DNA of 64,000 nt, from contig CAUYUJ010000220.1 of assembly GCA_963575745.1 (NCBI GenBank), positions 1-64,000 on the forward strand, read 5' to 3'. The position numbers and the translations under genes were made by a program. The DNA comes from Prorocentrum cordatum (Eukaryota). This document shows positions 11,656 through 61,095 of this stretch, one piece after another. The notes under the pieces are model-generated. The model worked only from the letters and a program-made list of their open reading frames with translations, had not been told where the DNA came from and searched no databases. Each line of letters begins with the position of its first letter. Position 1 is the first letter of the stretch.

Positions 11656-11856
11656 CTTATTGTTCATGTCGCACAAGACGCAGCAAATGAGAACCTGGCG
11701 GGACCTCTCCTTCCTGATGGCCAGGGTCTCCTCGAGCTCGTCCTCGACGATGATCTTGTCTGGTACCTGCGTCTGCTCCTCGGCCTCGTCGCCCGACTTT
11801 GCACCCTTGGCAAGGCGGGCCCTCCTGGGCCGCTTCGGTCTCGGCTCCCGCTCCAT
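11656..11856 (-). CDS. Gene A exon 1 (MEREPRPKRPRR...CCVLCDMNNK)
   Basis: ATG at 11856, basic NLS-like start, donor AAG|GA; joining to exon 2 brings CxxC together with a second CxxC (CDDC). Confidence 0.6.
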
Positions 11857-32468: not shown

Positions 32469-32515
32469 CGGCCGAAACTATTGCGATCGTTGCGAGACGA
32501 TCCAAAGCGAAAGAA

Positions 32516-37100: not shown

Positions 37101-39829
37101 CAGATCGGGGATGGTCAGAACCCTCTTTAATAAGACACGGCTAAGTGAAAACGACCTCGGGCCTCCACCTGGCGGGCGCTAGCCGGGGGAATGACGGCCG
37201 CGGCGCCCTCTCGAGAGCCGAAAACGGACAGCTCACTTATCGGCGCGCCAGGGCGGGGGTTCTGCCCGCCCCCGAGCAGACTAGCGGCGCCGCGCAGCGG
37301 GCGGCGAAGCCCCGGGTGGAAAATGCGCCGAGGCTTGAGCAATCGGGGCCTTCGCAGCAATCGCGTCGCTGGCCTGCCGCGAGCGCGTCGCCGGGGGCGA
37401 TCTGAATTGCGCCGAGCAGTTGCGATCCAGACAGTGCGGCGAGAGGTCCCCAGGCATCGCCGATTACGATTCACCGCGTTGCTGCACCGACGACGCGCGG
37501 ATAGAAGCGGTCAGGCCGTTGGCGGATCGCCGATGCCAGACGCTCTCCGCGTCGCCTCGCAATCGCTGCGGCCGGGGCGTAAATGCGACCTCCGCGCGCC
37601 CCGCGGGGGCCCGAATGCAAGTGGCGTTCTCGGTATCTTTCGCAGAGTGAACGAGAGGCTTGGCTCGGCGATCGCCCGGGGAGAGCATGGCGGGCGGGCG
37701 AAGCCCGGCGGGCGTGCCGGGCAGAGCGCGCGCGAGTGTCCGCCGACGTGGGGCCCCCCAACGAATACATGAACAATCAAATTTTGCGACGGCGAAGCTG
37801 CGCTTGAGCTCGGGGAAACAGCGCGCCCCCCCTCGAGCGAGGGGCCCCGTGCTCTTCGAGCGCTTCGGGCTGGAGGTTTAAAGCCCGCTGGAGGATGAAG
37901 ACGCGCGCGGCTGCGGTTCGCAGGCGCTGCGCTGAGAGGCCGAGCGCGCCGCGCTGGTTGAACTCGTCGAGCCCGCCGCCCGCCTCGAGGTCGACGCCGG
38001 CTAGCGAAGCGACCGTCCAGCGCGCCCGGGCTCGAGCGGACCGCGGCGCGGACTGCGCTGGGCCACCGCGCGCCGCTTCGCGCGCGGCGAGCCCGCGACC
38101 TTCGAGCATCGCGTGGACGCGACCCCCCCCCAGCCCAAGCAGCCCGGCGCGGTATTCTAGCGGCGCTTCCAATGCGAAGCAGCCATGTCGAGGCGATTGG
38201 AACTCGGCCGCGACGCGCCGATCAGGTCGCGCAGTTCGCCGCGATGCCGGCCTACCTGCCCCCATTAGGCCCCGGTGGGCCTCCGCGGCAGTGGGCTGCT
38301 CCGACTGCGCGAACTCGCCTGGCGACGCGCCAATCACTGACGCCCTGTCCTTCTTGCTGCGCTGCAGCAAATCCACGGGCGCGCGGTGCAAGCGTAAACT
38401 TGAATTGCTCCATTGGGGGATCGGCCGGCGTGGCGTCGTTGAGCGCCGGCGATGACTGGCGCAACGTCGGCACCGCGCTGTCCGACAGATTCCGCCGGCT
38501 CCACGTTGTCATGCTTTTAGCGCCCTGCTGGCTGCGTTTCCGCAGCGCCATTGGCGCGCCGCGGCCGCGGGGGCGGCGCCCGCCGGCGGCCGGGCCGCCG
38601 CGGCGGGGGGCGGCGGCCATGGGGGCCGCGCTGGGGGGCGCGGCGGGCGGCGTCGCCTGTTGAGCCCGCGCTCAAGCGACGTCTCGGCCGCCCGCGTCGG
38701 CAGCCGCCGCGGCGGCGGTTCTGCGGCGAGGTCGTCCTGCGCCAGGGCACGAGCTAGACGATGTTTTTCGTTATCGCTTGGTCTTCGCATGCCTTCGCCC
38801 CATCTTCGCGCGGCCGTTGCTGCGAAGCGAAATCAAAGCGGCAGCGGTCCACGAAATTGCAAAACGCAGATTATCTCGAGCCCTGCCCCGCAGCCTTGCA
38901 GGCGGCCGCCAGGGCTCGCGGGGGGCTCCCTTGACGGGGGCAGCGGCCGCAGGCTTGGGCGGATCAGCGCCAGGTCTGTCGGCGCTCGTCGAAGTCGGCC
39001 CGGGCGGCCCTGGGGCCCTCGGCTAGCCGCGCGCAGCCAGGCGCGCGATAAAGAAACGTATGATTCAAAAAGCGTGGGGCCTGGGTCAGCGCCCCGCGAG
39101 CCTCTCAAAGCAAGCCTGGGCCAACTTCTGCTGTTGACGCTGAAAGGGCCAACGCGATGCAAAGAACTGGGTCAGCTTTCTGGAAGGTTGGTCAAGACAC
39201 CCTGTCCCAACCTTTCGCGACTTCGGGGCCGCGGCCTCCAGCGCGAGCTGCAGCGCGCCCTCCTTCGCGGCAGCGGCCTGCTCCGCCGCCGCCGCGGCCG
39301 AGCAGCCGCGGGGGGCGCGCGGGTACAGCGAGTTGCAGCATCGGCAACCACCAGAAGAGGTTACGACTAGACAAAGTGGAAGAAGAAGGGATGGGAGGGG
39401 GAACAGAGGAATGCACGCATCGCTGTGACTGCGCAAGTCATCTACAGCTGCCGTGTAAAATGGCGCACGGACGACGCCCGTTGCCGCCGGGGCCGGGCCC
39501 GCTGGCGGCGCGCAGACCTGCCCCTCGGAGACCCGCGCGCATAAGAAAGTAAACGCTTGAAAGTGAATCTGCACCGCGGCCAGCAATGCATTGTGCGCTT
39601 TCTTCCGGCTGGGAAGAAGCACCTGAAAATGCGGTATCGCCGAAACTTTCTGCAGCGCGCTCGCGTCGCTCACCCTAGATATACATGCCGAGGCATGCCT
39701 GAAATGCGCCCCAGAATCCCGCGGTGAAAAGCGCCCGAGGGGGGCGCGCTCAGCCTTGATCACCTGTGGGGAATACACAGAATACAAGAGCAAGCTCAAA
39801 CAACGCTGTCGTAATTATTGCCTCTCGTT

Positions 39830-41830
39830 TCAATCGAATTGAAGAGCGCGACCACAATTGATCAAGTTTCTTTGACGTTTTCGCTGCTTCCCCTCACCTT
39901 CTGGGCACTTTGTTGTGGCTTTGCCATCGCGCGTGGCCAAATCCCCCAAGCGCATTGCGTCGCGCACGGTCTTGATGTCGCTTCCATCTGGTCTTGCAAC
40001 TCGCGCGCAGGTCGAAATCTGCATCTGCGCCGCGCTGCCGCAATTCAATTCCAAGCCGCGTGCGCGCCCTTCTTCCACGCTCGTTTTAAGCGTGGCCTGA
40101 ATATTCGCTCGATGTCGAGGTGCTAATAATGCGTCGCGCGCATGGAGAATGCCCTGGGGCACCGCATAGCCAGGTTCGGGGTCGAGGACCGCACCGTGCA
40201 ACGTGATCGTCTCTACTGCGATGAATAAGTACGGTGACAGCGGGCATCCTCGTGAACTCCCGGCGTCCTGGGGCCTCTCCGTGGAGCTTCCGGCGTGGTC
40301 AAGGATAATGGAGAGACGCGCGGAGGATATGGAACGCATCACGTCGACGATGTCACTGGGTAATCCAAGTCGGCGTAAAGCTTTGCACATGGCCTCCGGT
40401 TCAAATCCGTCGAAAGCTTTCGCCCAATCCAACATAAAAAACCACAATCCCACCACTTTTGTTGACGTGCGCGGCATCAATCATGCGCCTCACAAGCATG
40501 AGGGCGTCCGCGGCGCCGCGCCCAGGCCGGAACCCATATTGCGAGTTACGCATGCGTTCTGATCCACCTTAAAGTAACCTTTGGCGCATGAGTGCAGCCA
40601 GAATTGTATATCCCGCCGAAAGCAAAGAAATTTGACGACAATTCTCTGGGAGGGTAGTTTTTCTTGAGTGATAAAACTACTTTCGGTCTGTTCCAACGAG
40701 GGAGGATTCTCCTTCCTAGTCCAGCGTTGTCGGCATACTCGCAATCAAACGCTGGTTGCGCCACTATCACACATCAAAGCTTCCCAAGCATCTGATGATC
40801 TTTAGTTCCGTAACACATTGTAACGCTCATAGATAGTGAGATCGTGTGTGCGGACAGGTAGAACATCACCAATTTGTTGAGTTTGACATTATGGCTGGAA
40901 TTTTGGATGTCGCAATTGCCATTGCCTTGTTTCGAAATAGTCAGCCATGACATTTGCGCGTTCTGCAGTATCTGACCGTGTTCCATTTGGCTTTCTGATA
41001 GCAGCATGTTTGACACTTCTGGGTTTGCGCAAATAACGAATCACGTCCCATGCACCTCCACCAAGATATATTTCCAACCAAGTGTTCTGGTCTTGCTTGC
41101 CACATTTGCGGGTCATCGTGTTTACTGCTCGTTCTGATGTTGAATCACCCGTTTGACGATGCACCCTCCGTTTTTTTTTTTTTTTTTTTTTTTTTTTCAA
41201 GAAGATCAAGAGTACGCTGGCTTGTCCAAGTGCGTTTTGGCGGGGCTGTTTTGCCGGGTAGCGCGCACGCTGCTTGTTGGAAGGCTTGTTCAACATCATC
41301 TGCTGCTTCATCGGGTGTGGAGGTTTCGTATTCAGAGCGGGCGGCGGCACATGCGGGCAGATGATACCGTCCTCCCCAGTTCTGACGTGGCGGGTCGCCA
41401 GATTGAACGGACGAGATCTTAAAATTGATGATAAAACGAATGCCTCGTGCCAACATGTACTCTATTGAGATGGGCATATGCAGATATAAGCGCGAGAACA
41501 CCACCATGCGTCTTCAAGCGCAGTGTCGCAAGACGATCGCCGTTCGCAACGCTGACCGCATTCGCGGAAAAACAATGAAAGCTACACCTGCCCATGATCT
41601 TGTTTCCTTGTTGACTTCCCCTGGCAGGAACACAAAACAACCATCGTGGGTGAAATATTCGGCTCCATTGAAAGGTTTTTCCGGAATGCTGAAAACGTCC
41701 AAATTGCGCTCGCACATCAGATTGTACAAAATTCAACGTAATTCACAAAATAATCATCTCGGAGACCCTGAACGCTCCATGTGCCCAGGCGCTGCAAACT
41801 GTGAGGCTGGCAACCCCGCCTCGGCCGGCC
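39830..41830 (-). mobile_element. Degenerate non-LTR retrotransposon (LINE), APE endonuclease plus reverse transcriptase
   Basis: Frameshifted fragments: LGTWSVQGL, GVAFIV, LISAYAH (APE); WTSQRTLDLL, ANVMADYF; LDWAKAFD and G..RGCPLSPYLF (RT motifs). Confidence 0.85.
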
Positions 41831-42265
41831 CCAAGAAAATGTCGCAAGAGAAGCCGAATACGTAGAAGACGAAGAACAAGAAGAGGAATGAATCTTTGAT
41901 TCATGCTGAGACCGGCCGCGTAGAGGACGTAGGGGTACCGGGTGTCGTGCAGAAGGATGTTGCAGGGAGGGTGAAACGACCACTGGTCGCTGAACGACGG
42001 TAGCTTTGCCCAAATTCGCCGCGACTGTAGCGGCAACTTTGCCCGCGGTGGCGGCAGAGAGGTGCTCAAGTGACTCTCTGGCACGGCAGAATGGCAATCT
42101 TTCAGGCCAGGCTGCGGGGGCCCGGGTCCGGCCGTGTTTCCTTTTGGCCTTTAGATGTGCCTTTGGCCGTGCCTTTCATTGAAGGGGCCCTGGGACACAC
42201 AAATAAATACACACAAATAAAACGATTCCCCATAGCCTTTGGCCGTGCCTTTCATACCCTGGGTG

Positions 42266-42443
42266 CAGTCGGGGCGTGGACCTAAGGAACCCTAAACAGG
42301 GAACGAGGCCCCTCTTTTCCACAAGTGGAACTTCGACTTCCCGTCGAGGGCACGGGGGAAACCTGGGGCAAGCCGTGAAACACTTATAAGGAACACCGAG
42401 CCCCTACCCAACGAAAAGGGCTCCCTCCTCCGCGCCCCGACGG
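42266..42443 (+). mobile_element. MITE family A, diverged copy
   Basis: cagtcggggc...gccccgacgg with the same internal sequence; TA flanks lost. Confidence 0.8.
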
Positions 42444-42559
42444 TCACCCGGCGACGGCCTGCTGCATGGGAAAAACCTCCTTCGCGCACGTCCTCCCGCG
42501 GCGCAGGCGATACAGGCTCGAACACCAGCACCGTCCGTGGCGAGCCGAGCGGCTTTCTC

Positions 42560-42737
42560 TCAACGGGCGAAGAACGATATAAAATAAACTTTTTCGCTGT
42601 CGGGGGCGCCTGCCCCAGGGCGGCTGGAAAGTTTATACCCCTACAGTGCCACCGTAAGGGTATAAACTTTCCAGCCGCCCTGAGGCAGGTGTCCCCGACG
42701 GCGAAAAAAATAGTTCATACCGTTCTTCGCCCGTTAA
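42560..42737. mobile_element. Fold-back (full-length hairpin) element with a 5-bp TTCTC duplication
   Basis: Arms aacgggcgaagaacg...agggcggctggaaagtttataccc and gggtataaactttccagccgccct...cgttcttcgcccgtt; TTCTC at 42555-42559 and 42738-42742. Confidence 0.85.
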
Positions 42738-43261
42738 TTCTCGTCTGCCTGCGCCTTGCGACCGCGGTCGGCCTGCCCGCGCCGTTTGCGGCCCCGCCGT
42801 CGCCTCCGCCCCAGACGCCTGAAGGCTGCCGATGGCTTCGGGGATCTGCTGACCCAGATCGATCGAGACCCGGGCCAGTCGGCCTTATGCAAGATCCAGC
42901 AACATTCTGCAGGATCCTGCGCGCAGACCCGTGTGAGTGCACCCCTGGCCCTGTAGGATCCTGGCTGACCCCCGTTGGAACGGACCCCCGTCTCAAGGCC
43001 CTCGACGGGTCAAGGGTGCTGCCGCACCGGGACAAGGATTGAGGGCGCGGCGCCGCTGCCTGGCACACCCAGCCTTGCTCCTCCAGCGTGGAGGCCGTGC
43101 GCGGCGCAAGACCATCCCATCACGACACAATGAACATCAGGGGATACAATATGAAAGGTATCGCATCGAGTCCTGCCAATGGCGTAGCTGCAGCACGGGA
43201 ACTGTTTGGGCCGGGAACTCCCCACGCCACGGTCCCAAGCCCCTTGAGGAATGCCTCCAGA

Positions 43262-43283
43262 CTTGAGCCAAAGTGGCTGCGAA
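43262..43283 (-). other. Relic dinoflagellate spliced leader
   Basis: TTCGCAGCCACTTTGGCTCAAG, 19/22 match. Confidence 0.8.
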
Positions 43284-44204
43284 CTTCCCCTCCCCCTCCT
43301 CCTGCCGCTCCTTCTCCCCTTCCTCCTCCCACACATACCATCCCCTGGCCGTGTCCTGGGGCGCAGCCTTAACAAAAAGTTCAAGCGGACCCAGCTGTGG
43401 CGACAAGGGTGCCCAACTGTTCAAGAACAACTACCGCTATACTGTAGATTCGCCTCTCCTCCGACCGTATGGGGAGGGTGCGAAGTCCCTGTGTGCGGGA
43501 CGGAGTGGGCAGGGAGAGACACCCAAGGTCTCCCAACCTTCGAGGCCCTGGCACCATACGCGCGCCCGACACTTTCGGGGGAGGCATCATACGCCTCCCC
43601 GGCAACTCTGCGCCAGACGCAACAAAACAAAATCGGGGCCACACCATCATGGATGAAGGATGCATGGGTCTAGTGCGCGGTCGCCAGATCCATGGATCGG
43701 GGAAGGCGCTCCCGAGAAATTGCGCCCGTGCTGCCCGATTTGGCGGCTGCGCCCGCCGATTCTGCATGAAAACGGGGCCCGTCGCCAATACAAGCGACTC
43801 AATCCATGTTTGCGAGTCCTTGAAATAATTGGATGCGTTCCTTGAGTTCGGGGTCTCCTCCTCCTCCACCGGCCCAGACGTCTCCGCGGAGGGCTCCCGA
43901 GGCCGCTGGGGCGCCACCAGACAGAAGCCCCCTGGTTGCCCTCTGAAGCCCTGGTCCCTCCGGAAACGGAACGACGGAGCTAAGCACGTGCAGGAGGCCA
44001 TCCTCGATCCTCGTTTCGGCGTCGCCTCAACCCCTCTCAACGATCAAGATCAAAGGAAGGTAAGGAGAAAAGAAAGGCAGGCTCAGCAGAAGGAAGGCCG
44101 CGCCTGCGCGTGCTTGACCCACCCACCACTCCGCCCCCCCCCGTAACCAGGGGCATCCTAGATCCTCGCCCACTCGCCTCATCCCTCATCTTCCCCCCCG
44201 CTGC

Positions 44205-44405
44205 CCACACATATGAGGCAGGTGCCGATGATCACCTTCGGCTGCAGCCTCTCCTGCAGGAACGCCACCGAGAAGGCCACGACCATGATGGTGTTCAGCT
44301 TCCCGAGGATCTGCATGGAGGCCCCGCCGATCTGCTTGATGACGAACATGCCGAGGAGGTTCAGGGCGCACGCGCTCACGCAGGTGGCCAGCACCAGAAG
44401 CGACG
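44205..44405 (-). CDS. TPT/SLC35E-type transporter exon 7
   Basis: SLLVLATCVSACALNLLGMFVIKQIGGASMQILGKLNTIMVVAFSVAFLQE...GTCLICV, typical C-terminal TM helices of the TPT family; final exon not located. Confidence 0.8.
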
Positions 44406-45099
44406 CTGGAGAGGCGAAGAAGGGAGGGCGCCCCGCCATACGCTTTTTGGCCGAAGGGCTGGGCAAGAGGGAGGGGGAAGGAGGGGGGGGAAGCGAGATA
44501 CGGCAGGTTCGTGCGGCGATGACTTCCACGTTTGTTGCTGATACCGCGTGGATCGTTCACACTTGAACCATCGCGTCTTCCCGATTCCCGATAACGCAGA
44601 TCGTTCGATATCGGCCGGTTCCGGGCCACTGGCGGCGTCAAACCAGGAACGCCCGTGCCGGTGTCGCCACCGCGGCAACGCGGCGCGAACCTACCGGAGG
44701 GGGAGGGGGTTGGGAGTCGATCAGGGGAACGTGCCTGGGTCGTGTGCCAGAAGCCGCGCGGACGTATCATTGGGTCTTTGGCAGTCTCTCAGAGCACGGA
44801 TGGGGGCCTCTTGGGGGTCTCCTCTGGGAGCTTCCCCAGGGCGTCCTGGGGCCTCTTGGGGGCAGAGATCAGTGGGGGAGCGGGAGAAGCAGCGGAGAAT
44901 GGGTAGAGTCAGGGAGCGTTACTGGTCGCCCGCAGCCGAAGGGAGGGTGGGCCGAAGGCGATGCCCTCTCTTGGCCGCGCCACGACGTGGGATCGAGAGC
45001 GCGGACCTCCTAGCTCTTCATGTGGTTGCCATTTTTTGTTCCCTGGGTCAGGAGGGCCTCGAGGGGTACTGGCAGCGCACCTCGCTTTCATCCTCCCTG

Positions 45100-45302
45100 G
45101 ATGTCCCGACATGCAACGCTCTGGCGAACGCGAAGAAGTCCTCGGTTGCCACGGCGTAGATGACCGAGATCACGACGCACGGGAGGCCTTGCAGCGCCCA
45201 GACGTGCATGGGATCCACTGGCATGGCCGCCTGCAGCGGTTGCTTCTCGCTACCCTCGCGGGCGTACGCGGTGGGGTTCAGGAGGTTGTCCTGCAGCACC
45301 AC
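45100..45302 (-). CDS. TPT transporter exon 6
   Basis: ctcag|GTG start; VVLQDNLL...PMHVWALQGLPC...ATE; donor position uncertain. Confidence 0.75.
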
Positions 45303-45447
45303 CTGAGACAGGCTCGCCCCCTCCGAATACTTATCAGAGCATGTCGCCCTCAATGGAGGGATGTATGAACAATGCCTGTTCTCGGGACTGGTAATGTTCC
45401 ACAAATCCTTCTTTGGTGCGACCATGCCTGGGGTGTACTCCTAGAAG

Positions 45448-45593
45448 CCTCCGTGTCGGAATAGATGGGGTTGGAGAATCGTGCCGCATCGTCGGTGTAT
45501 CGGCGCCGTCGTGACGCAGAAACCGCATCAACAATGCATCGGCGATGCGGCTCGATCCTCCGACCCCGTCCACTCCGGCCCTCTTTGGTGAGG
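45448..45593. mobile_element. MITE family B, diverged intronic copy
   Basis: tcggaatagatggggttggagaatcgtgccgcatc...gatgcggctcgatcctccgacccc. Confidence 0.65.
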
Positions 45594-45907
45594 TCGCCGA
45601 ATGTCGCGCACCGCCCTTGGAGCGACGCGCGGTTGATCTTGGTGCCCTCGCCCCGCCCCCCGGAGAAGGGCAGATCTCAAGCCCAGGCCGCGACGCGCGA
45701 TGGGCGATGACTTTCGCGCCAAGCGAGATGGTGTAGCGATCTTACGTGGTGGCTTACGCGGGCTGCCCGCGCGGCACGCCACGTTTGAAGCGAGGGCGCT
45801 TACGCGCGACCTTACGCGGGCAACTTGCGCGCCAATGTCGGCGCAGACGACCCCGTTTTGTGGCGTCGCTCATTTGGGAGGCCAGGAAATTGGACGGGCC
45901 CCGCTGC

Positions 45908-46192
45908 CTTGATGGAGCGAAGCAGGACGGACGCCAGGGAAAAGAGCAGCCCAAAGGCCACCGCGCCGCCCGCATGCCCGTGGCCCAGCTTGCCCCAGGC
46001 AATCACGCCGGCTCCTACGCAGGCCATGCCGACGCCAACCCAAGCGAACTTCGCAACTTTCCTGCCCATGAGGTTAGCAAGAGCTGCGGTGGTCACCGGG
46101 GAGAGCGTTGCCACGATGGAGTTCAGACCAGCGCCGAGATAGATCAGCGCAGTGTTGTTGAAGACAACGGACAGCGGAAGGCTAAGAGCGAT
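45908..46192 (-). CDS. TPT transporter exon 5
   Basis: IALSLPLSVVFNNTALIYLGAGLNSIVATLSPVTTA...SVLLRSIK; donor AAG|GC. Confidence 0.85.
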
Positions 46193-46326
46193 AGTGGGGA
46201 GCAGAAAAAACAAACGCCTACTCTCGAAGCCCTTTCCAAGCTCTTGCCCACCGCATGTCTTCGTCCTCTCCCCTCCCCTCCCACCCTTTCTGCAAGTAGG
46301 TGCTTTTCTGCTCAGCTCCCCCAGCT
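46193..46326. mobile_element. Inverted-repeat-bounded insertion forming TPT intron 4
   Basis: Ends AG(C)TGGGG(G)AGC..AGAAAA..CCTACT are inverted; precise removal gives F-I-L-P|I-A-L. Confidence 0.65.
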
Positions 46327-46422
46327 GGGCAGGATGAAAGTGGTGTAGCGCGATGCCGAGCCCATGGAGGAGGGAAGCGCCTTGTGGGACTCGCCCTTCA
46401 CCAGCCAATACACCACACAGAC
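46327..46422 (-). CDS. TPT transporter exon 4
   Basis: ccgcag|GTC start; VCVVYWLVKGESHKALPSSMGSASRYTTFILP. Confidence 0.8.
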
Positions 46423-46560
46423 CTGCGGAGGACGCCAACAACACCTGCACCCACCTCGGCCGGGCCGATCCCGGGTCCCGGATCGGTGTGGGTGTCTGGC
46501 AGCCCCGTGTGAACTCCACCCCTGCAGGTCTAATCTCTGGAGCGCCAGCTGGGGTTCATA

Positions 46561-46736
46561 CAGTCGGGGCGTTGACCTAAGGAACCCTAGATAAGGAACG
46601 AGGCCCCGTTTTTCCATAAGTTAAACTTCGATTTCCGATCGGAAACATGAGGAAAACCTGAGGCAAGCTGTGAAACACTTAAGGAACGCGGAGCCCCTCC
46701 CCAACGAAAAGGGTTCCTTCTTCAGGGCCCCGACTG
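46561..46736 (+). mobile_element. MITE family A within TPT intron 3
   Basis: TA|CAGTCGGGGC...GCCCCGACTG|TA. Confidence 0.9.
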
Positions 46737-46862
46737 TAACCCGAACGATGTCTGCAACCGAGAAGACCCCCACGGGGGTGTCCGATAAGCCAGCGTCGAG
46801 CGGACCCGCAGGGGCGGGGTTCGCAATCGGCCGCAAGTGTAAAGCTGGCGCCCCGCGGGTAC

Positions 46863-46895
46863 CAGCCAGACGGTCGCGAAGTGCAGGACAGTCAC
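46863..46895 (-). CDS. TPT transporter exon 3 (33-nt micro-exon VTVLHFATVWL)
   Basis: ctaag|GTG...CTG|GT; completes the family motif YPGW-VTVLHF. Confidence 0.8.
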
Positions 46896-47081
46896 CTTAG
46901 CTGCCCCGCAACGCAACACGCAGAACGTAGCGTATTGTTACGGAGCTCAACACGTAGACTTAAAACGTGGGTATGACGCTACACGTTCGACAAAACGTCG
47001 GCCGACACGCTGAGCCAGCACGCAACGTATGGACACGGACGTTTTCAGCACAGTGAGAATGGCGTTTCAAAATATAGAGGG

Positions 47082-47280
47082 CTCCTAGATGGGGTCCGAT
47101 TAGGTGAAGTCGGGGGATCGCGCCGCATCGCCAATGCATCGGCGATGCATCGGCGACGTCGGCGACGTATCGACGACGTCGGCGGGGAGAAAATCGGGCT
47201 CGGCATCGAGCCGCATCGCCGATGCATCGGGGATGCTGCGCGATCCTCCGACCCCATCTACTCCGACCCCGTCTGGGAGG
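47082..47280. mobile_element. MITE family B within TPT intron 2
   Basis: ctcctagatggggtc...gaccccgtctgggagg with the cgatgcatcgg core. Confidence 0.8.
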
Positions 47281-47319
47281 CTGAGAAAACGGGCGTGTCG
47301 CGGCGGCTGAGACAGTCAC

Positions 47320-47446
47320 CCATCCAGGGTAGTTGAAGCTGAACGGCGCACTCGACAGCTCCTTCATCAGCAGCTGCGTGGAGACGAGAGAGCAGATGAG
47401 GCCGACCGTGCAGAAGGTGGCGGTCGGCCCGTGCGGCCGGAGTACG
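47320..47446 (-). CDS. TPT transporter exon 2
   Basis: VLRPHGPTATFCTVGLICSLVSTQLLMKELSSAPFSFNYPGW (K..L...F.YP motif); donor TGG|GT. Confidence 0.8.
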
Positions 47447-47891
47447 ATCGGCGGCGAGCGAGGGGGGGGCAATGAGAAGGAGAAGACCTTCTCGGAAGGC
47501 GGCGGGACTTCTCAAAAGCCTTCGGTGGCAACTCATGGGAGCCTCCCATACCATCTTGTCGGCTCTTGCGAATCGACGCTGGTTGACGCTAAATCGACGC
47601 TGATCGACGCTAATTCGGCGCTAATCGACGCTAACCGACGCTAAATCGGCGCTAGCTCATCGACTCCCGAACGCTACTCGACGCTAAGGACATAATTACG
47701 ACCATACACAAGGCTCCCATGATTTCCTACCGAAGGAGAAGGCCTTCTCAGAAGGCGGCGGGACTTCTCCGAAGACCTCTTGTGTGCGTTTTCGGGAGAA
47801 GCTTAGGAAGCTTCTCAGAAGGCCGGGGGACACTTCCGAGCCTTCTGAGAAGGCCTGCCCCTTTTTACTTCCCCCCGGGCTCGCCGCCGAT
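47447..47891. mobile_element. TIR-bounded insertion forming TPT intron 1
   Basis: Perfect 13-bp TIR ATCGGCGGCGAGC extending imperfectly to ~50 bp; contains an (AATCGACGCT)n array at ~47570-47690. Confidence 0.75.
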
Positions 47892-48049
47892 ATAAAGCAG
47901 ACCGCGCTGAACAGGGAGCCCACGATAACCACGGCGATCAACTTGCCAACGCCCTCGGTGAACTTGCTGGAGGCGGCAACCTGCAGCAGAGAGATCGATA
48001 GCACGTCTTCAACGGAGCTGGGCTCGAGCATGACGGCCGTGTGTGCCAT
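47892..48049 (-). CDS. TPT transporter exon 1
   Basis: ATG at 48049; MAHTAVML...LIAVVIVGSLFSAVCF; SL relic ~70 nt upstream. Confidence 0.65.
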
Positions 48050-48119
48050 TCGCCTGTCTGACCTCGGGGCGCTGTCCAGTGTCGTGGATTATGTATAGCT
48101 TGTCAAGGTGCCCCAAGGG

Positions 48120-48141
48120 CTTTAGCCAAATTGGCAACTGT
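48120..48141 (-). other. Relic dinoflagellate spliced leader
   Basis: ACAGTTGCCAATTTGGCTAAAG, 18/22 match, correctly oriented 5' of the TPT ATG. Confidence 0.7.
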
Positions 48142-51033
48142 GATATGTGCTGATGCAGATGAGAGGGGCCACCAGTGTGAGAATGGAATGGGAGAACACG
48201 GCCATGCGATAGAGAAGGAGGGAGGTTATGAGGAAGATGATGACAGATGATGGCGAGAATGAGGAAGCGGATGAGGCGAACGAAGATGAGGTATCATAAT
48301 AAGACGGATACGTACGAACGGGGTGAGACAACATAATGCATCAATATATCGTGCACGTCATAGTGTTTCGTCTTCCGTGTCCGTCAAACCCAACACTTGT
48401 GGGTGCCTTGCGCACCGCACTATCTGCAACTGCTCTGCCTGGCAGCAGTGATCGTGTACCTTAGACAGGTGTTCGACGTCACGCTGCGTTGGCTCCTTGA
48501 ATAACAAGTTCTTGCGAGGGAGTAAAAGGTATGTTATCAACAGCGTGCAGACTATCACAAAATGCTGCGACCAAACTGAAAAGCCGTAGTATCAACAACA
48601 ATCCCACAAACCCTCTGGGCAAATGTGGTATAACGCTTCTTTCCCCTCCTCGTCCAAGCCTCCTTCCTCCACTATTCGGAGAGGGTTTCATCACTTCCCC
48701 GTGAATGTACACACCCTCCTCCACTCCAACAGCCCCTATTCAAGGCAAGCACCAACGTCCCCTCACCATCCCTGTCAACAAAGATTAAGCAATGCAAATT
48801 TGCATCACCAGCGGGATCATGTTCGGACGCCCCACGAACACGTTTGTCTTTTGACAGAGACCAAGGGGGTATCATATTGCCCCACGTGCGTAGGCCCATC
48901 ATCCCTGTCAAAACCAATGCAAAGCGGCAAAGTCTTGGGCGCCCCGCGATTACGCGCAGTGATATTTGACAGGGATGGTGGGGTTGCACTGGCACGCCGG
49001 CGCACCTCGACGGTGCGGTGCACTTTGCTAGCGTACGCATTGGTTCCTGATGGTTGTCGATGCCGTCCCCTGTTGATGTGTTGGAAGGGCGGCACGGAGT
49101 GAGCGAGATGGCTTGCGGCTTGTGGGTGCCCGCCCCCATCAGGCAGCCTGTTTTGGCCCACGATGACTACACTATGGCCCCGGACGTCCCAAGAGGGCGC
49201 CCAAAACGGCTCAAGATAGCGGGAGATGGTCCAAGATAGCCAATTCTAAATTGAATTTGATAGAAATCCTAGACCCGACCGCGATGTCTGCTAGGCGAGA
49301 GTGCGATTCTTGAACAGACTCTGACGAAGTCCCAGGCAAGAGCGCGACTTGAGCAATTTGCACAGAGGTCTCGAGCAAGAGCGGCTTTCTTGTATAAACT
49401 ATTAGAAAGACTTGGAATTTCGACGCGAATCCAGCGGTGGCGACGAGGCCTCCCAGGATGCCCAAAGGGGAAAACGAGGGAAGGGTAGCAGTATGGGTAC
49501 TTCTTCCTCCTCTGACCACTACTGTTGTACACGGAGACCAGAGGCGCAGGGCGAGCACCAAAACCCCCTCTGACCAAAAGAACATTAGGTGCGAGAGTCG
49601 AGAGGTGCACCTCACACTACAAATAACAGGCATCTGGTAGGGGGTACCGACAGCATATTTCGAGAAGCAAAACAATGCAGAAGCATTAACTTTCAGAAAT
49701 CTACGGGGGAAAGTTTCGAGGGTCAAAAATCAGCACAAACTGAAGAACAGCCTTTCGAGGCACTGCGTGAGCACAGGTCATGTAAAGAAGCAAACAATGA
49801 CATAAGCACACATACTCGGAAGGCCGCTCGGATGTCTTGGATCGGCGCTGGACCCCCCCTCCCTCCCTGGCGCGTGGAGCGCACCAGAAGCGGCGCCAGA
49901 GGCGCCGCCAGGGGGGGCCAGCGCAGATCCAAAAGGTGCGCGCGGACCTCCGAAAGCTCATGTTTAGGCAGTGCTTGCTCCTTGGCTTATTCTGGGAAGG
50001 GGAGCTTGATCACAGTTACAGGGCGACAAGGTCGTCATGATCATATCGGCGCAGCAAGCGTTCTGGGACTTCCAGAGCATCTAGCGGCGCAGCCAGTGCG
50101 GAACATGAGGACATGTTGGAAATCCTGGGTCTTTCGAACCCTTTCCATACGGAAATCAATTATGTTTCCGACGCCCTTATTGACGGACTGGGGCACCAGT
50201 AATAATGAAAATGATTGTTTCTCCGAGAAGGAACGAGACGAGGAGAAGCAGGAGGAGGACGAGGACTAGTGTCAACCCGAGACTCACCAACGATGTTGGA
50301 CAAGAGAAAAGAAAGGTGGAGGAGGAAGGGGGATGCAGGGGGAGGAGGAGGAGGAGAAGAAGGAGGAGGAGGAGGAGGAAGAAGAGGAGGAGCGGGCGGG
50401 GGAGGAGGGACAAGGTTTTCTCCCCGCCAAGAGAAACAGGGAGGGGAAGCTAAAGACAACCTGATGGCAAGCACCTACCATCTGGAGGTTCGCGCAGACT
50501 TCTTGGGTCGGTCTCTTGGGTCGGCGCCCCCCCGAGTCTGTGGTGCCGGACGCACTGCGGGCGGCAGAGCGGCGTTGCGTATTGGGATGGGGGGGAGGGG
50601 GCAGGAGGGACGAGGGGGAGGGGGGGGAGGGAGAGTAGGGGAGGGATGGGGAAGGGGGAGGGAAATGGGGAAGAGGGAAAGGGGGGGGGGAGGAAGGGGG
50701 AGCGTTACATGATGGGGAGGGGGGAGGGAGGGGGGGACGATGGGCGGCAGAACGGGCTTTATGGTCCAGAGGGTTACAGCAACACCCTCGTTTTGAGCAG
50801 GGACCGACCGTCCCGCCATTGCTATAGGCACACCACGACGTGTGCTTAGAACCCCGACAAGTTTTGAGAGCAACGACAACGTTCTGAGAACAAGAACCGA
50901 TGCATGAAACAAAACAGTCTCGGCCAGAACTGTTCGAACCATATTTCTTGCAGGCCACAAGATGTTCTCTCCAGTGGGCCTCTGGGCGAGCCGGACGCTT
51001 CGCCGCTGCTTGATCCTTGCCCCTCGAGAAGTA

Positions 51034-51209
51034 CAGTCGGGGCCCTGAAGAATGAACCCTTTTGGTTGGGGAGGGGCTCCGCGTTCCTTGACAGTTTCGC
51101 AGCTTGCCTTGGGTTTTCCCTAGGCTTTCGATGTGAAATCGAAGTCTAACTTATGGAGAATAGGGGCCTCGTTCCTTATTCAGGGTTCCTTAGGTCAACG
51201 CCCCGACTG
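51034..51209 (-). mobile_element. MITE family A, reverse orientation
   Basis: TA-flanked with the same TIR. Confidence 0.9.
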
Positions 51210-51431
51210 TATGAACCCCAGCTGGCGCTCCAGAGATTAGACCTGCAGGGGTGGAGTTCACACGGGGCTGCCAGACACCCACACCGATCCGGGACCCGGG
51301 ATCGGCCCGGCCGAGGTGGGTGCAGATGTTGTTGGCGTCCTCCGCAGGTCTGTGTGGTGTATTGGCTGGTGAAGGGCGAGTCCCACAAGGCGCTTCCCTC
51401 CTCCATGGGCTCGGCATCGCGCTACACCACT
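51210..51431 (+). repeat. Inverted near-identical copy of 46339-46560 (part of TPT intron 3 plus most of exon 4)
   Basis: ORF translations are identical apart from about one substitution (ANNT vs ANNI). Confidence 0.9.
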
Positions 51432-51624
51432 GTCAACGCCCCGACTGTATAGGCGAGCCAGACGCTTCGCCGCTGCTTGATCCCTGCCCCTCGAGAAGTA
51501 TGCCTCTACCAGTTGGAGCTCCGCGCGGGCCTCTTCATGGGGTCGGCGACTGGCTCCCGCGGCGTGCCCCCCCCCCCCCTCGGGGTCTCTCGGCGCCTTC
51601 CCCCGGGGGTGGGGGGGGGGCTGG

Positions 51625-51960
51625 CCTCTCCCTCCTCCTCCTCCTCCTCCTACTCCTCCTCCTCCTCCTCCTCCTCCTCCTCCTCTCCTCCTCCTCCTCT
51701 GCCTCCTCCTCCTCCTCCCCATTCCTCCCTCCTCCTCTCCTCCTCCTCCTCCTCCTCTCCTCCTCCTCCTCCTCCTCCTCCTCCTCCCCATTCCTCCTCC
51801 CCCCTCCCCATTCCTCCTCCCTCCTCCCCATCCTCCTCCTCCTCCTCCTCTCTTCCTCCTCTCCTCCTCCTCCCTCCTGCTCCTCCTCCTTCTCCTCCTC
51901 CTCCTCCTCCTCTTCCTCCTCCTCCTCCTCCCTCCTGCTCCTCCTCCTTCTCCTCTCCCG
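51625..51960. repeat. (TCC)n low-complexity tract
   Basis: Direct reading; a further tract lies at ~52715-52925. Confidence 0.9.
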
Positions 51961-52821
51961 AGACCCCTCGCCGACAGCCCCAGGCCGGCCCCCGCTACGA
52001 CGAAGCCAGGACGAGGATAACATGGGGTGGGGATGAATCGAGAATCTCTGCTCGATGCCCAGGGGGCTGGCTTCTCATCCCGAGGCGCCTCGCTGACGGC
52101 TCCTTTGCAATCCAAATGTTTTCGGTGTTTGAGAATGGTGTTCCCGATGCAGCGTGGGCCTCATTTTCGGAGCGGCGCGTGGCTCCCGTCGCTCAGCATG
52201 GCGCTCTCGCTCCAGCGAGGGCCGCTTTCCTGGATCCGAGTCTTGGTCATTGTGATCCCCCCGTCGTTTCTCCTCCTCCTGCTCCGCCGTCCCCTGGTCC
52301 AGTTCCTCCCGCCCCTTCCACTCAAGTTCCTGCTGCTGTTCGTCTCGCCACAGCCAGTGCCACTATTCTGAAGACGAATGTTTCCTCATCGTTACCCTCC
52401 CCATTTCCCTCCTCCGCCTTCCCCTGGCCCTCCTTTCCCTCGCGATCCTTCCGTTGTAGTTCCTGCTGCTACTGCTGTTCGTCCTCATCCTTTCCTTCCG
52501 CTCATCCCCCCCTCGCCCCTCGCCCCTCGCCCCCCCCCCTTGCCCCCCCCCGTCCTCACGCCCCCTCCCCCGGAGCCACTGCGGCGGCGGCTCGTGCGGG
52601 GCGCCAGGCCGCGAGCCCGCCCACTCGAAGGGGGGCTGCCCGGGCGGCGGCGGCGGCCCTGGCGCACGCTGGCGCGCGCGCGCTGGTGTCCCCCCCCCAT
52701 CACGGGCTGCCGATGCCTCCTCCTTCCTCCTCCTCCTGCTCATCCTCATGCTCCTCCTCCTGCTGCTCCTCCTCCTCCTCCTCCTCCACCTGTGTCCTCG
52801 TCCTCGTCCTAGTCCTCCTCC

Positions 52822-52853
<32 letters not shown>

Positions 52854-53139
52854 CTTCTCTTCCTCCTCCTTCTCCTTCTCCTCCTCCTCCTCCTCCTCCT
52901 CCTCCTCCTACTCCTCCTCCCTCTTTTCTGACGTTGGCCAGACATGAAGCTGAGCCTGTTTTCTATGGCAAACCAATCCCCAACTTAAGCGAAGCAGCGA
53001 ACGAATTGACCCGCAGACGGGTGCGGAAACGTCAGCGCAACGAGAACAAATCCGCCGACCCTGTCGGCGTGTGTGAGGGGCTTTTCCGTTCGAGCCGTCA
53101 TCTCCGTCATTCTTTGTACTCGTCGTCTCTGTCCTTCCC

Positions 53140-54290
53140 TTTCCCTGGGAGACCTCTTCCCCTGGGCTCCAGCCAAGCCGACCTTGAGCAACCTCGTAAT
53201 TGAGTCGAAGGGAAGCCCCTTCCCTTTGATCCCTCCCCCGCCGGGAGGGGGGGGGGGGTAGCGACCCCCCCCCCGGGTCAGATACGACGCCCCCCCCTGG
53301 GACTCCTCTTCCCCTGGGCTCCAGCCAAGCCGACCTTGAGCAACCTCGTAATTGAGTCGAAGGGAAGCCCCTTCCCTTTGATCCCTCCCCCGCCGGGAGG
53401 GGGGGGGGGTATCGACCCCCCCCCCGGGTCAGATACGACGCCCCCCCCCCGTACCGACCTTGAGCAACGTCGTAATTCAGTCGAAGGGAAGCCCCTTCCC
53501 TTTGATCCCTCCCCCGCCGGGAGGGGGGGGGGGTATCGACCCCCCCCCCGGGTCAGATACGACGCCCCCCCCCGTACCGACCTTGAGCAACGTCGTAATT
53601 CAGTCGAAGGGAAGCCCCTTCCCTTTCCCTTCCCCGCCGGGGGGGGGGGGGGTATCGACCCCCCCCCCGGGTCAGATACGACGCCCCCCCCCCGTACCGA
53701 CCTTGAGCAACGTCGTAATTCAGTCGAAGGGAAGCCCCTTCCCTTTGATCCCTTCCCCGCCGGGAGGGGGGGGGGGGTATCGACCCCCCCCCCGGGTCAG
53801 ATACGACGCCCCCCCCCCGTACCGACCTTGAGCAACGTCGTAATTGAGTCGAAGGGAAGCCCCTTCCCTTTGATCCCTTCCCCGCCGGGAGGGGGGGGGG
53901 GTATCGACCCCCCCCGGGGATACGACGGCCCCCCCCCGACCTTGAGCAACGTCGTAATTCAGTCGAAGGGAAGCCCCTTCCCTTTGATCCCCCCCCCGCC
54001 GGGAGGGGGGGGAGGGGTAGCGACCCCCCCCCCGGGTCAGATACGACGCCCCCCCCTGGGACTCCTCTTCCCCTGGGCTCCAGCCAAGCCGACCTTGAGC
54101 AACCTCGTAATTGAGTCGAAGGGAAGCCCCTTCCCTTTCATTCCTCCCCCGCCGGGAGGGGGGGGGGGTAGCGGGGGGGGTAGCGACCCCCCCCCGAGTC
54201 AGATACGACGCCCCCCCCCCGTACCGACCTTGAGCAACGTCGTCATTGAGTCGAAGGGAAGCCCCTTCCCTTTCCCTTCCCCGACGGGGG
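53140..54290. repeat. ~120-bp tandem satellite, about 9 copies
   Basis: Unit ccgaccttgagcaacgtcgtaattcagtcgaagggaagccccttccctttgatccc...gggggtatcgacccccc...gggtcagatacgacgcccc. Confidence 0.95.
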
Positions 54291-57200: not shown

Positions 57201-58341
57201 CGGGGCTCCTACCTTGAAGAGCCCAGGGGCACACAAACAAATGGACACAAGTCACAGGATTCTCGATTGTTCGTTATCATGTTTCATGTGTCGTCCCCTC
57301 CACTTTCCATGTTTGCTATACGTTCATGGCAATCGACGTGGGTGTGCATATATATATATATATATATACTATGCACTTATATACACACGCATTGATTCTC
57401 TGACCGTCGCCGTACTAATCCAGGGGAACCAAGAGGCTTGCAGGGTGCTTATCGGAAGCAGTTTTGACCCCTCTTGGGGGCTGCTTTGGCATCTCTTGGG
57501 GCCTTTTTTGGGCCTCTTGGGGAGCTGGGGCCTGTTAGGGACCTCTGCGGAGGTCCTTGGTGCCACTCGGGGGCCGTTCTGGGGTCCGCTTGGGCCGTCT
57601 TGGGCGCATCTTGGGCCGCCTTGGGGCCCTCTTGGGCCGTAGCCGGAGCCTCTTGAGTGCCTCTTGGGCCGTCTTGGGGCGATCTGGGGGGCGTCTTGGA
57701 CCGTCTTGGAGCGTCGGGAGGGCGAGAAGTTGGCGATGTTGGCCTCTTGTGGCTCCCTTGGGGGGCTTCTGGGGGCATCCTGTGGCGAACAGGGGGCCTC
57801 CTCCGCCTCCTTCACCTCCTCCTCCTTCCGCCCCCTGGGCGCTCCAGGGTGGCACGAAGCGGGCCCCACAGGGGCCCTAAACGAGCCCCCTATAGGGCCC
57901 CGAAGGGGCACGAAAGGTGCACCTTTCTCCCCACCCCCCCCCCAGCTTCGGGGGGGCGTGAGACCCGGGTACAGGGGACTCGGAAATCCCCGACGAGGTC
58001 GTCAAAAAAATGACGAGGCCGAGCCTGCGTTTTGACGAGGCCTCCCGCTGCAGACATCCCAGGAAACTCCTGCTCGTCAACATCCGAATCGCGGTCGTCA
58101 ACAAAAAGATGGCGAACCCGAGTCCTGGCAAACCCGGGTCTTACGCTCCCCCGACAGCTATCGCCCCCCAAGTAGCGAACGCCCGCGCGTAGCGGGGGGG
58201 GGGGGGGGGGGCAGGGCGCCCGGCGGCTGCGAGGCCGCGGCGGGCGCGGAGGCGCCGGGCGCGGCGCCGCCAGAGGAGCCGCCGTGCCTGCGCGGGGCCG
58301 CGGCGGGGCGCGGCCCCCGGCGGCGTCCCAGAAGCGGACTA

Positions 58342-58517
58342 CCGTCGGGGCGCTGACCTAAGGAGCCTTACATAAGGAACGAGGCCCCTTTTTTCCACAA
58401 GTGAACCTTCGATTTCCGGTCGAAAACATGAGGAGAGCCCGAGGCAAGCTGTGAAACACTTCAGGAACGCGGAGCCCCTCCCCAACGAAAAGGGTTCCTT
58501 CTTCAGGGCCCCGACTG
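58342..58517 (+). mobile_element. MITE family A
   Basis: TA|CCGTCGGGGC...GCCCCGACTG|TA. Confidence 0.85.
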
Positions 58518-60292
58518 TACGATGGCGACAACGACAACGACGACGGCGACGACGACGGCGACGACGGCGACGGCGGCGACGACGGCGGCGGCGCCAACGG
58601 CAACAACGCGACGGCGACGACGCCGAGGCCCATGCATAGTGTCTTCACCATGGAGACGGCGACCCCGCTGTGCGCCATTTCGGCACGCCATTTACACGCT
58701 TCGTGGCCCCATAAGGAGATCCACCGAAGGCGATGCCCACAACGGCGATTTTCACAACAGCGATAGCGCCCGTGACCTGTCCGCCTCCCGCCTTCCCCCT
58801 CAAGCACTCCAAGGCGGCGCCAGCGCGAATCGTGACGTGACTGGCCCTCCCGCCCTAACCGTCCCCTCCTGGTCACGCTCGTTATCGGCAGGGGATGCAC
58901 AAAAACCGGCCAGGCAAAAACAATCCTCGCCCCCCGCTCAATTCTCGAGGAAGGAAGGGCAGCGGATCAAATTGAAAAATCGGCCCCGGTGATGGAGCCT
59001 TGCCCTCTTAGGGTCCACGACTTGAGAAAACAAAATGAGCGACGTCGAATCTCTGGGGAGAGGGGGACGAGGCGAGAACGAGGAGGATTGTAGTGTAGCG
59101 CGGATCCTCGTAAGGTAGGCATATCCCTGTATGTGTCAAGTGGGGCGTTTGAGCTCACTCATCCTATTACGTCAGTCTTGGTGAAGATCGGGAAGTCCCC
59201 ACTTGCATTGAATGATTACAACGTGCCGTGTGACGCATTCGAAGACTGATGGTTCGTATGCGCCAACCATTTGTCTCATGGCAGCCACCTCTGCCAGTTC
59301 AGACTTAGTACAGGCTGGTGACAACTTGTGTAAGTCACCTGCGCAAAAAAAGAAACGAACAAGCATACGCATTGTTGTTCGCAGCGCTGGCGGACGCGAA
59401 CGCGACTGCAGAGCCAATCATGCATTCAATTTTTTGCGTCGGCGGCTGGGCAGTGTAACTGCGCTGGCGGAGGGCCAACTAAACGGGGGTACCGTTGTAG
59501 CGAATTGTGCCACCGTGTAGGAGGGGAGGGAAAAGCAAAGGAAGCGGCCGAAAGGGGGCGGAAGGAGCGAGCCGCTCAGGGGGACGGGTTACGCAAACAT
59601 GCATACACACGAGGAGGAGCAGCAGCTGCAGATGGGGAAGGGGGCTATGGCCGTCTCGCCTGTGCTTGCCGCGCCGGTGGTGTCGCGACCGGCTGCGCCG
59701 CCGCTGGTCGCCAGAGGCGCTCGCCATGGCCGAGGCCTCGGCGGCGCCGTCGTCGCCGTGGCTGTCACCGCCGTCGACGACGTAAGCGTTCTGGATGATT
59801 TTGGTCGTTTGTGACATGCTCATGGCAGCGGCTCGGGCGGATCGGGATGGCCTGGGTGGGCCCCGAGAGGAGTCCGAGGACCGGCGTGGAGCGGATTCAA
59901 GCGGGGGCATTGGTGCCTCGTCGTGGTCGCAGCGTGCTCGGTGTTCGAGGCGCGATCGATGTAGGATCGAGGCTTTGGGCCCTTTTTCGGGTAGCGGATC
60001 GACTACAGAAGTGATGTACCCAAGATTTGATTTGTTCATCGAACCCATGAAAAAATACAGCACTGTTTCTGTAGACCCGACGAGAAAACTAATTCTGGGG
60101 TAAGTCAATTCTGTAGTCTGTCGTCGATCCCCTCCTACTCTACTTTTGGGCTGCTTTCTGAGCTGGAAGGGCTTCTGGAGGGTGGCGGCGACGTCGTGGG
60201 CCGCTGTGGCCAGCATTGTCCTCGCTGTTGTCGGGCGCGTCGATCGTCGCCGCTGTCGCTGTCATCACGAAAAAGAAATCTTAGATTAGAGG

Positions 60293-60494
60293 CCTCCCAG
60301 ATGGGGTCAGACTAGATGGGGTCGAAGGATCGCGCCGCATCGCCAATGCATCGCCGATGCATCGGCGATGCATCGGCGATGCATCGGCGACGTCGGCCTG
60401 GGGAACCACGGTCTGCACTTCGAGCCGCATCGTCGATGCATTGGCGATGCGGCGCGATCCTCCGATCCCATCTACTGGGACCGCACCTAGGAGG
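60293..60494. mobile_element. MITE family B
   Basis: cctcccagatggggtc...ccgcacctaggagg with the cgatgcatcgg core. Confidence 0.8.
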
Positions 60495-61095
60495 CCTCGA
60501 TAGATACGCCCGGACTTTCTCTCGTTTTGGCCCCTGGAGGCCCCCTGGGCCACAAAAGAAACGGACCGAGGTGAAAAACAGGTCCCTTGGACGCTGGGAT
60601 GGGGTCGAGTGGTCTGGAGTCTGGGGGCCCCTGTACGGAAGTGTCGTGACGTCGGATGTCCTGGGCTGTGCGAGATGCCCAGCTCGCACATCGCAAACGG
60701 GGTCACTGACATCACCACCCACACTCCAGATGCCCAATTCGACGCGCAGGCGTTACTCTCATACTTTCCCTTGATCCAGCGCCAGCACTGCTTCGTGCCC
60801 TGGGCCCCCGTGCCTCCCGCCACCTTCCTCCGCGGCCTGGGGAAACCACCGATACCGCCACTCCCCCGATCTCTCCCGGGGTGCGTTCTGACCAGGATTT
60901 CGAGCCGAATCCAGCGGCAACAAAGGGGAACACAGGCGAAGGGTAGCGGTATGGGTACCTTTTCCTCGTCTGATGTTCATCCTGAAGTGTTCCCAAGCCG
61001 ATCAATTTGGGCTGGCTTTTTGCGAAACAGACAACTGCCTCGCCAAAGCCGCCTATCGCGCGGCCGCCAGGCCCCAATGGTCCGGGTGGTCCCTG

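Follow-up and report, generated by a model that had tools for sequence, protein, structure and literature searches.

Is a transposon-like element that interrupts a coding sequence removed from the transcripts of its host gene and, if so, at which boundaries? This question is raised by a locus of the dinoflagellate Prorocentrum cordatum, in which an EamA/TPT-type transporter gene on the minus strand is interrupted at codon 53/54 by a 445-bp element with terminal inverted repeats (TIRs). The original prediction, made from the letters of the DNA, held that this element is an intron with non-canonical AT...AT ends, taken out either as a blunt 445-bp piece or, alternatively, through an in-frame GC donor and AG acceptor offered by the TIRs. 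We analysed the locus in a window of 64 kb (the whole stretch of DNA under study, to which all coordinates refer). The G+C content of the window is about 0.6, and that of the P. cordatum genome is given as 59.7% in the available text of PMC10666404.

Repeat searches of the window confirmed the element and its perfect 13-bp TIR at the predicted position, with arms at 47447-47459 (plus strand) and 47879-47891 (minus strand). Its parts are as follows.

47447-47891, minus strand: TIR-bounded element of 445 bp, inserted in coding sequence
47447-47467, plus strand (3' arm in the sense RNA): left TIR arm, of which the first 13 nt are perfect
47871-47891, plus strand (5' arm in the sense RNA): right TIR arm, the other member of the inverted-repeat pair
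47476-47523 and 47732-47779: direct duplication of 48 nt, flanking the internal segment 47469-47731
47519-47544 and 47711-47736: inner palindrome of 26 nt, inside the internal segment
47568-47687: tandem array of 10-11-nt units, inside the internal segment
47469-47731: internal segment missing from related transcriptome copies, which have about 6 nt instead

Within the 64-kb window the 13-mer ATCGGCGGCGAGC has exactly two occurrences, one at each end of the element and in inverted orientation to each other. When one mismatch is allowed, 0.34 matches are expected from shuffled sequences, and two or more were found in 4 of 100 shuffles. Pairing of the arms reaches 21 nt at 90% complementarity, and a looser extension takes it to about 54 nt, at 78%. 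The 445-bp span can also be described as a core of 443 nt (47448-47890) running from TCGGCGGCGAGC to GCTCGCCGCCGA, i.e. TCGG...CCGA, plus one base at each end. The interior is composite, consisting of a direct duplication, a nested palindrome and a tandem array; overall the element is small, built of repeats and ridden with stops in the frame entering from exon 1. No second copy of it was found in the 64-kb window, and a search of the whole window against Rfam gave no matches.

Relatives of the element were seen in RNA contigs, and the transcriptome contig tables are the source of all other family copies described here. In three of the four RNA runs analysed below, further contigs match 47448-47468 and then 47732 onwards; they represent shorter relatives without the inner palindrome and with the 48-nt duplication reduced to a single copy. 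Run X6 has three contigs whose match to the element starts at 47448 and runs inwards, and which are unlike the sequence outside it. Since other contigs match from this position inwards while their flanks differ, the comparison supports the view that the element belongs to a mobile, MITE-like repeated family; of the criteria for a MITE, TIRs are present and multiple copies are seen in RNA contigs only. The description as a 443-nt core fits the X6 contigs, because their match starts at 47448. As for the target site, the perfect direct repeat at the borders of the intron described below is 2 nt (TA), and three of five positions are the same in the 5-nt sequences flanking the 443-nt core, so that the target duplication could be either a decayed 5-bp repeat or a 2-bp TA. 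We also scanned metagenomes for two 12-nt arm motifs lying 150-180 nt apart and obtained at least 120 loci. Among the 120 that were listed and compared by BLAST, none resembled the element beyond the motifs themselves, and we rejected them as family members, regarding the matches listed as chance occurrences in GC-rich DNA.

Evidence for transcription and removal comes from assembled RNA contigs, rather than reads, and concerns one gene. A run screen with the stretch 44000-48300 returned 24 runs, of which 20 contained part of it. In no run did the share of sampled words from this stretch exceed 0.25, which is the share expected if exons only are present, and no run contained half or more of them. 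Contigs of four runs, from four different studies, were aligned to 39000-50200; two of these runs are recorded as polyA RNA-Seq, whereas the type of the other two is presumed. Every run yielded one contig (1250-1497 nt, with depths of 12 to 814 across the four runs) that aligned to the minus strand in seven exon pieces with no mismatches and skipped six segments, namely intron 1 and five other introns. The exons and introns that concern us are listed here.

47891-48139, minus strand: exon 1, from contigs, with last codons ...TGC TTT ATA
47443-47890 (+0 to +2 nt), minus strand: intron 1, 448 nt, from contigs of 4/4 runs, non-canonical, border repeat 2 nt
47320-47442, minus strand: exon 2, from contigs, beginning CTC CGG CCG (L-R-P)
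46896-47319, minus strand: intron 2, 424 nt, GT-AG, perfect border repeat of 10 nt
46863-46895, minus strand: exon 3, a micro-exon of 33 nt, from contigs
46423-46862, minus strand: intron 3, 440 nt, GT-AG, border repeat 3 nt
46192-46325, minus strand: intron 4, 134 nt, GC..TA or AG..CT, border repeat 1 nt
45303-45907, minus strand: intron 5, 605 nt, GC-AG, border repeat 3 nt
44402-45099, minus strand: intron 6, 698 nt, CA..TC, CC..GT or TC..CG, repeat 2 nt
4858-44208, minus strand: intron 7, 39,351 nt, GT-AG, border repeat 6 nt
4857-4756, minus strand: last exon, encoding the last 32 residues, followed by the TGA stop at 4755-4753

The joining of exon 1 to exon 2, on which the original prediction had beforehand been made to stand or fall, was found in the single contig of each of the four runs. 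The joint runs directly from 47442 to 47891 in all of them, skipping 448 nt, and no competing joint at this site is among those listed. The rows listed leave out 526 pieces and 88 loose ends, and neither uncovered stretches nor the lack of unspliced contigs in these rows enter our argument. Its placement has a freedom of 2 nt, so that the removed piece is 47443-47890, 47444-47891 or 47445-47892, with sense ends TC..TA, AT..GT or TA..CG, respectively; in none of these three placements do the ends read GT-AG, GC-AG, GA-AG or AT-AC. The piece missing from the mRNA comprises the 445-bp element and 3 nt on its sense-3' side or, equivalently, the 443-nt core and 5 nt on that side. With respect to the arms, the 5' cut is no more than 1 nt away from the outer end of the 13-bp arm, and the 3' cut falls beyond the opposite arm by 2-4 nt. 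With the coding sequence starting at 48049, the junction falls after codon 53 and reads, in the sense direction, ...TGC TTT ATA from exon 1 and CTC CGG CCG from exon 2, giving F-I-L. Intron 1 is a real, transcript-supported, transposon-like non-canonical intron. It is absent from the mRNA in four studies, and canonical introns are spliced in the same transcript.

The protein restored by this junction is a known one. The exons joined as in the contigs encode residues 1-366 of the 398 of P0001, exactly; P0001 is a 398-aa open reading frame (ORF) from transcriptome sources, 100% identical, which was recovered in a search with the exon-encoded protein that gave six hits. In Pfam, P0001 matches EamA with 36.1 bits (cut-off 28.2) and TPT with 30.3 bits (cut-off 30), and by these scores above the gathering thresholds the host gene is assigned to the EamA/TPT (drug/metabolite transporter) family. 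The conserved reading frame is recovered across the junction, where P0001 and four close homologs (P0003, P0004, P0005 and P0008) all have CFILRPHG, and a distant homolog, P0006, is uninterrupted at this point too.

These sequences also decide on the two forms of removal first proposed. Blunt loss of 47447-47891 would indeed read ...CFIVLRPHG, as had been calculated, and the GC-AG alternative, which would exonise 14 element-derived codons, is likewise in frame, its sites being present in the sequence. Neither joint, however, is among those listed for the four runs, in which the observed loss is 448 nt; the predicted V is missing from the mRNA, from P0001 and from the four close homologs, and the 14 extra codons are missing from P0001 and these homologs alike. 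We therefore consider either form hardly credible, allowing for rare isoforms that contigs may miss. The claim of a non-canonical AT...AT intron held as regards the non-canonical nature of the ends but failed as regards the boundaries, which enclose 448 nt and not a blunt 445. In the same way, the proposal that the locus illustrates the passage from transposon to intron is borne out in that a TIR element, apparently derived from a transposon, acts as an intron, although through neither of the outcomes foreseen.

Could the joint have arisen during reverse transcription, the mRNA keeping the element and the enzyme jumping across its hairpin at the short TA repeat? False non-canonical introns are known to arise by template switching at structured regions, the element is predicted to form a very stable hairpin, and a 2-nt repeat is present at the junction. 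Against this, the joined form appears in all four runs, at depths from 12 to 814, with no competing joint listed, so that the jump would have to be nearly complete and to occur always at the same 2-nt repeat. Moreover, the product restores a junction conserved in five of five close sequences, whereas a retained element would put a stop in frame: translation continuing from exon 1 would end within the element, as in the ORF 48088-47699. Finally, intron 6 has no hairpin and is skipped just as cleanly. An artefact of this kind is, in our judgement, highly improbable.

A difference at the DNA level deserves somewhat more weight, while still being unlikely. In that case the mRNA would come from an element-free paralog or strain variant, the copy in the window being silent or broken. 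Dinoflagellate genes are often present in multiple copies, and an empty site would mimic the precise, in-frame loss of the element together with one copy of its target site; the 2-nt TA repeat at the borders of intron 1 would fit a TA target duplication. On the other hand, exons and contigs agree without a mismatch across about 1.2 kb in each of the four studies, and the window copy would have had to receive three separate insertions without any exon substitution. Two of these do not look like fresh cut-and-paste insertions, since intron 4 has a border repeat of 1 nt and intron 6 lacks inverted ends; at intron 1 itself, a TA duplication would leave the ends of the element asymmetric by 3 nt. 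Nor does the public record point to a second gene copy: the only NCBI model in the cluster of P0001 is a fragment from the same contig rather than a full-length one, and of the six hits of the exon search the NCBI-labelled source gave P0002 only. The same phenomenon has, besides, been documented at the RNA level in Amoebophrya, according to the available text of PMC7789003.

We thus favour removal at the RNA level, and consider it most likely, with a probability of roughly 0.8, that the element is taken out as a helix-ended non-canonical intron of transposon origin. We infer the action on RNA, the guidance by a helix and the acting enzymes. A non-autonomous, MITE-like DNA element would have inserted in codon 53/54 of an EamA/TPT-family gene, would be transcribed with it, and would then be taken out of the pre-mRNA as a 448-nt intron whose borders follow no known dinucleotide rule. 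Its terminal inverted repeats would form a long helix that brings the exon ends together, with cutting and joining at or beside the base of this helix, by a machinery that has no requirement for GT or AG. This machinery may be a relaxed spliceosome, which has been argued for Amoebophrya and Fritillaria and which we favour, or else an endonuclease-ligase route of the kind suspected for euglenids.

Predicted folding is consistent with such a helix. The sense RNA of 47433-47900 folds at -219.6 kcal/mol (z = -7.25; none of 100 shuffles as stable), and in the predicted structure the termini of the element pair with each other. We then computed the end-to-end duplex of all seven introns of the gene against 300 shuffles each. 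That of intron 1 has -46.3 kcal/mol, with z = -4.2 and no shuffle as stable (0/300). The duplexes of the other two non-canonical introns gave z = -3.6 (1/300 as stable) for intron 4 and z = -0.5 (86/300) for intron 6, and those of the canonical introns z = -1.1 (39/300) for intron 2, z = -3.3 (2/300) for intron 3, z = -1.1 (47/300) for intron 5 and z = +0.6 (217/300) for intron 7.

In total, three of the seven introns of the gene (1, 4 and 6) are non-canonical and the other four are GT-AG or GC-AG. Intron 4 has an imperfect terminal helix of about 28 nt, formed by its first and last 30 nt or so, and is cut 4 nt outside it on both sides; folded as a whole it is unexceptional (z = -1.78, 8/200), as is intron 6 (z = +1.02, 16/20), in which we found neither a terminal inverted repeat nor pairing of the ends. 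Terminal helices are therefore present in two of the three non-canonical introns and are not exclusive to this class, since canonical intron 3 also shows pairing of its ends, a point that speaks against a helix specific to non-canonical removal. Helix guidance is further weakened by the different positions of the cuts relative to the helix in introns 1 and 4. A common cut-to-helix geometry for these two introns was rejected, their spacers adding up to 3 nt and 8 nt, respectively. Because intron 6 has no terminal helix, the helix cannot be the whole rule of removal; whatever removes these introns does not always need one.

Three more specific explanations of the borders of intron 1 were considered and rejected. 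A bulge-helix-bulge motif of the tRNA type does not apply, as the cuts fall at paired positions of the predicted fold and not in 3-nt bulges. A-to-I editing of the helix into GU...AG does not either, an AG 3' end being impossible in every placement. Introns of the U12 type have AT-AC or GT-AG termini and conserved 5' splice-site and branch-site motifs. The only placement of intron 1 that starts with AT ends in GT, which excludes U12-type AT-AC, and the ATATC-like string on its 5' side does not line up with the joint seen in the contigs.

The canonical introns of the gene carry repeats of their own. The borders of intron 2 show a perfect 10-nt direct repeat, GGTGACTGTC in the sense direction; its GT lies in the upstream copy of the repeat and its AG spans the end of the element and the downstream copy, an arrangement resembling that of a classical introner bounded by a target-site duplication. 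Separately, we noted a family of palindromic repeats of about 207 bp, found in introns 2 and 5 and elsewhere in the window.

47075-47281: copy of the ~207-bp palindromic repeat; 67-nt arms at 84% in the copy 47082-47279
60287-60495: copy of the ~207-bp palindromic repeat
3894-4174: copy of the ~207-bp palindromic repeat
45455-45581: copy of the ~207-bp palindromic repeat

A dispersed repeat of about 180 bp is found at 46559-46738, 58340-58519, 3058-3229, 42266-42450 and 51032-51211; its copies are 82-94% identical, and it is abundant in RNA contigs with unlike flanks on both sides. A stray exon fragment lies some 4.6 kb from the gene, at 51032-51435: it is a 404-bp duplicate (94%), in inverted orientation, that covers most of exon 4 and the part of intron 3 next to it. 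Downstream of the gene, at 51631-51955, 52716-52920 and 53330-54056, there are long CCT microsatellites of 108 and 68 units and a tandem repeat of 124 bp that has 6 copies with 93% matches.

Intron 7, of more than 39 kb, contains two long open frames, 7973-11656 (1228 aa) and 29109-32477 (1123 aa), neither with a Pfam match, and a reverse-transcriptase fragment at 39833-40480. We found no second transcript-supported gene in the window: Pfam searches with 38 ORFs matched only an RVT_1 fragment and the EamA exon of the transporter, and a protein search with the 1228-aa ORF returned one paralog at 62% identity, labelled P. cordatum, and no transcript-derived protein.

The public annotation of this gene can be read against the contigs. 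The NCBI-labelled models consist of two fragments, P0002 (244 aa, with the label 'unnamed protein product [Prorocentrum cordatum]') and P0007 (111 aa), on one contig of 116,735 bp; a single 398-aa transporter gene has thus been split into two public models (44182-48049), the first of them mis-spliced. P0002 departs from exon 1 through a cryptic GT and resumes at the acceptor of intron 3, so that the element and exons 2 and 3 are missing from it. A GA...AG pair is forced at intron 4, adding S-W-G and dropping I-A-L-S, and the model then runs into intron 6 as far as a stop. P0007 begins inside intron 6 and has the 39-kb GT-AG intron correct. The public models therefore fail at all three non-canonical introns and succeed at the GT/GC-AG ones. 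According to the available text of PMC10666404, the tools of the P. cordatum pipeline were modified to allow only GT, GC and GA donors; introns of the kind described here could therefore not be annotated.

Among known systems, the closest match to intron 1 is provided by the non-canonical introner elements of Amoebophrya (Syndiniales). More than 60% of the introns of Amoebophrya are non-canonical, as given in the available text of Farhat et al. 2021 (PMC7789003), which describes an RNA-seq-supported subset with inverted repeats of 8-20 nt, direct repeats of 3-5 nt and cuts that vary with respect to the hairpin, and reports that Amoebophrya lacks U1. Intron 1 shares with these introns the support from RNA, the lack of fixed border dinucleotides, inverted repeats of the 8-20-nt class able to pair the exon borders (13 bp perfect here), a short direct repeat at the borders and cuts variable relative to the hairpin. 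In both cases the elements are MITE-like, without transposase, and repeated (apparently so here, going by the copies in RNA contigs), canonical introns coexist with them, and both hosts are dinoflagellates in the broad sense. There are differences, however: P. cordatum is a core dinoflagellate that lives freely and photosynthesises and has a multi-gigabase genome, the perfect repeat at the borders of intron 1 is weaker, with 2 nt instead of 3-5 nt, and its element is long (445 bp) and composite.

The nonconventional introns of euglenids, as described in the available text of PMC12501133 and PMC11282704, resemble intron 1 in having borders other than GT/AG and ends whose pairing joins the exons, as well as repeats like target-site duplications, a suspected MITE origin and conventional introns in the same gene. 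Their signature in Euglena, 5'-N3CDG ... CH'GN5-6 followed by an exon that starts with a purine (PMC12501133, same text), is, on the other hand, absent from intron 1 in all three placements. Taking CGG and CCG as the triplets, the spacers are 1+6, 2+5 or 3+4 and the next exon starts with C, A or T, respectively, so that each placement deviates from the signature, in the form given there, by at least 1 nt on one side. The helix also differs, with 13 perfect base pairs in intron 1 against 3, and the lineage is unrelated.

Canonical introners, the subject reportedly of the studies by Huff in 2016 and Roy in 2023, are likewise non-autonomous TIR transposons turned into introns, and in them too the piece removed is as long as the element and a few bases beside it, which would be expected if one copy of the target site goes with it. 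They are reported from Micromonas, Aureococcus and Polarella, and the available text of PMC10666404 counts as 'introner elements' 2.4% of the annotated introns of P. cordatum. Those introners provide or recruit GT/GC/GA-AG sites and depend on the ordinary spliceosome, whereas intron 1 has no GT/GC/GA-AG pair within its 2-nt ambiguity. In Fritillaria borealis, the available text of PMC11282704 describes MITE-derived non-canonical introns with preferred border patterns and an adapted U2 spliceosome. The tolerance of MITE insertions in coding sequence through the removal of non-GT/AG introns is common to both cases; in contrast to ours, that host is an animal, and three introns are too few for a border pattern to be derived here.

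Among dinoflagellates, the available parts of PMC11453091 and PMC11282704 mention borders other than G[T/C/A]-AG for Amoebophrya only. In the literature searched, which extended neither to Roy et al. 2023 nor to the supplementary tables of PMC10666404, we found no report of such introns for Prorocentrum or core dinoflagellates.

The locus offers a transcript-backed case of a transposon-like element acting as an intron without GT-AG ends, side by side with canonical introns, and thereby places non-canonical introns in the style of Amoebophrya in a bloom-forming (red-tide) core dinoflagellate. The choice between one relaxed spliceosome and a second machinery becomes testable in an alga that can be cultured. 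For the gene sets of these genomes, pipelines restricted to certain splice sites may be systematically damaging. We suggest tentatively, and at slightly less than even odds, that free-living core dinoflagellates, and not just the parasitic Amoebophrya, may have a second route of intron removal, independent of GT-AG and often guided by a helix, which would perhaps be common in Prorocentrum cordatum, where three of the seven introns of this gene are of the kind. If so, this pathway would predate the split between Syndiniales and core dinoflagellates; it would be invisible to current pipelines, part of the published gene set consisting of split or mis-spliced models; and it would mean that MITE-like elements can land in coding sequence without killing genes.
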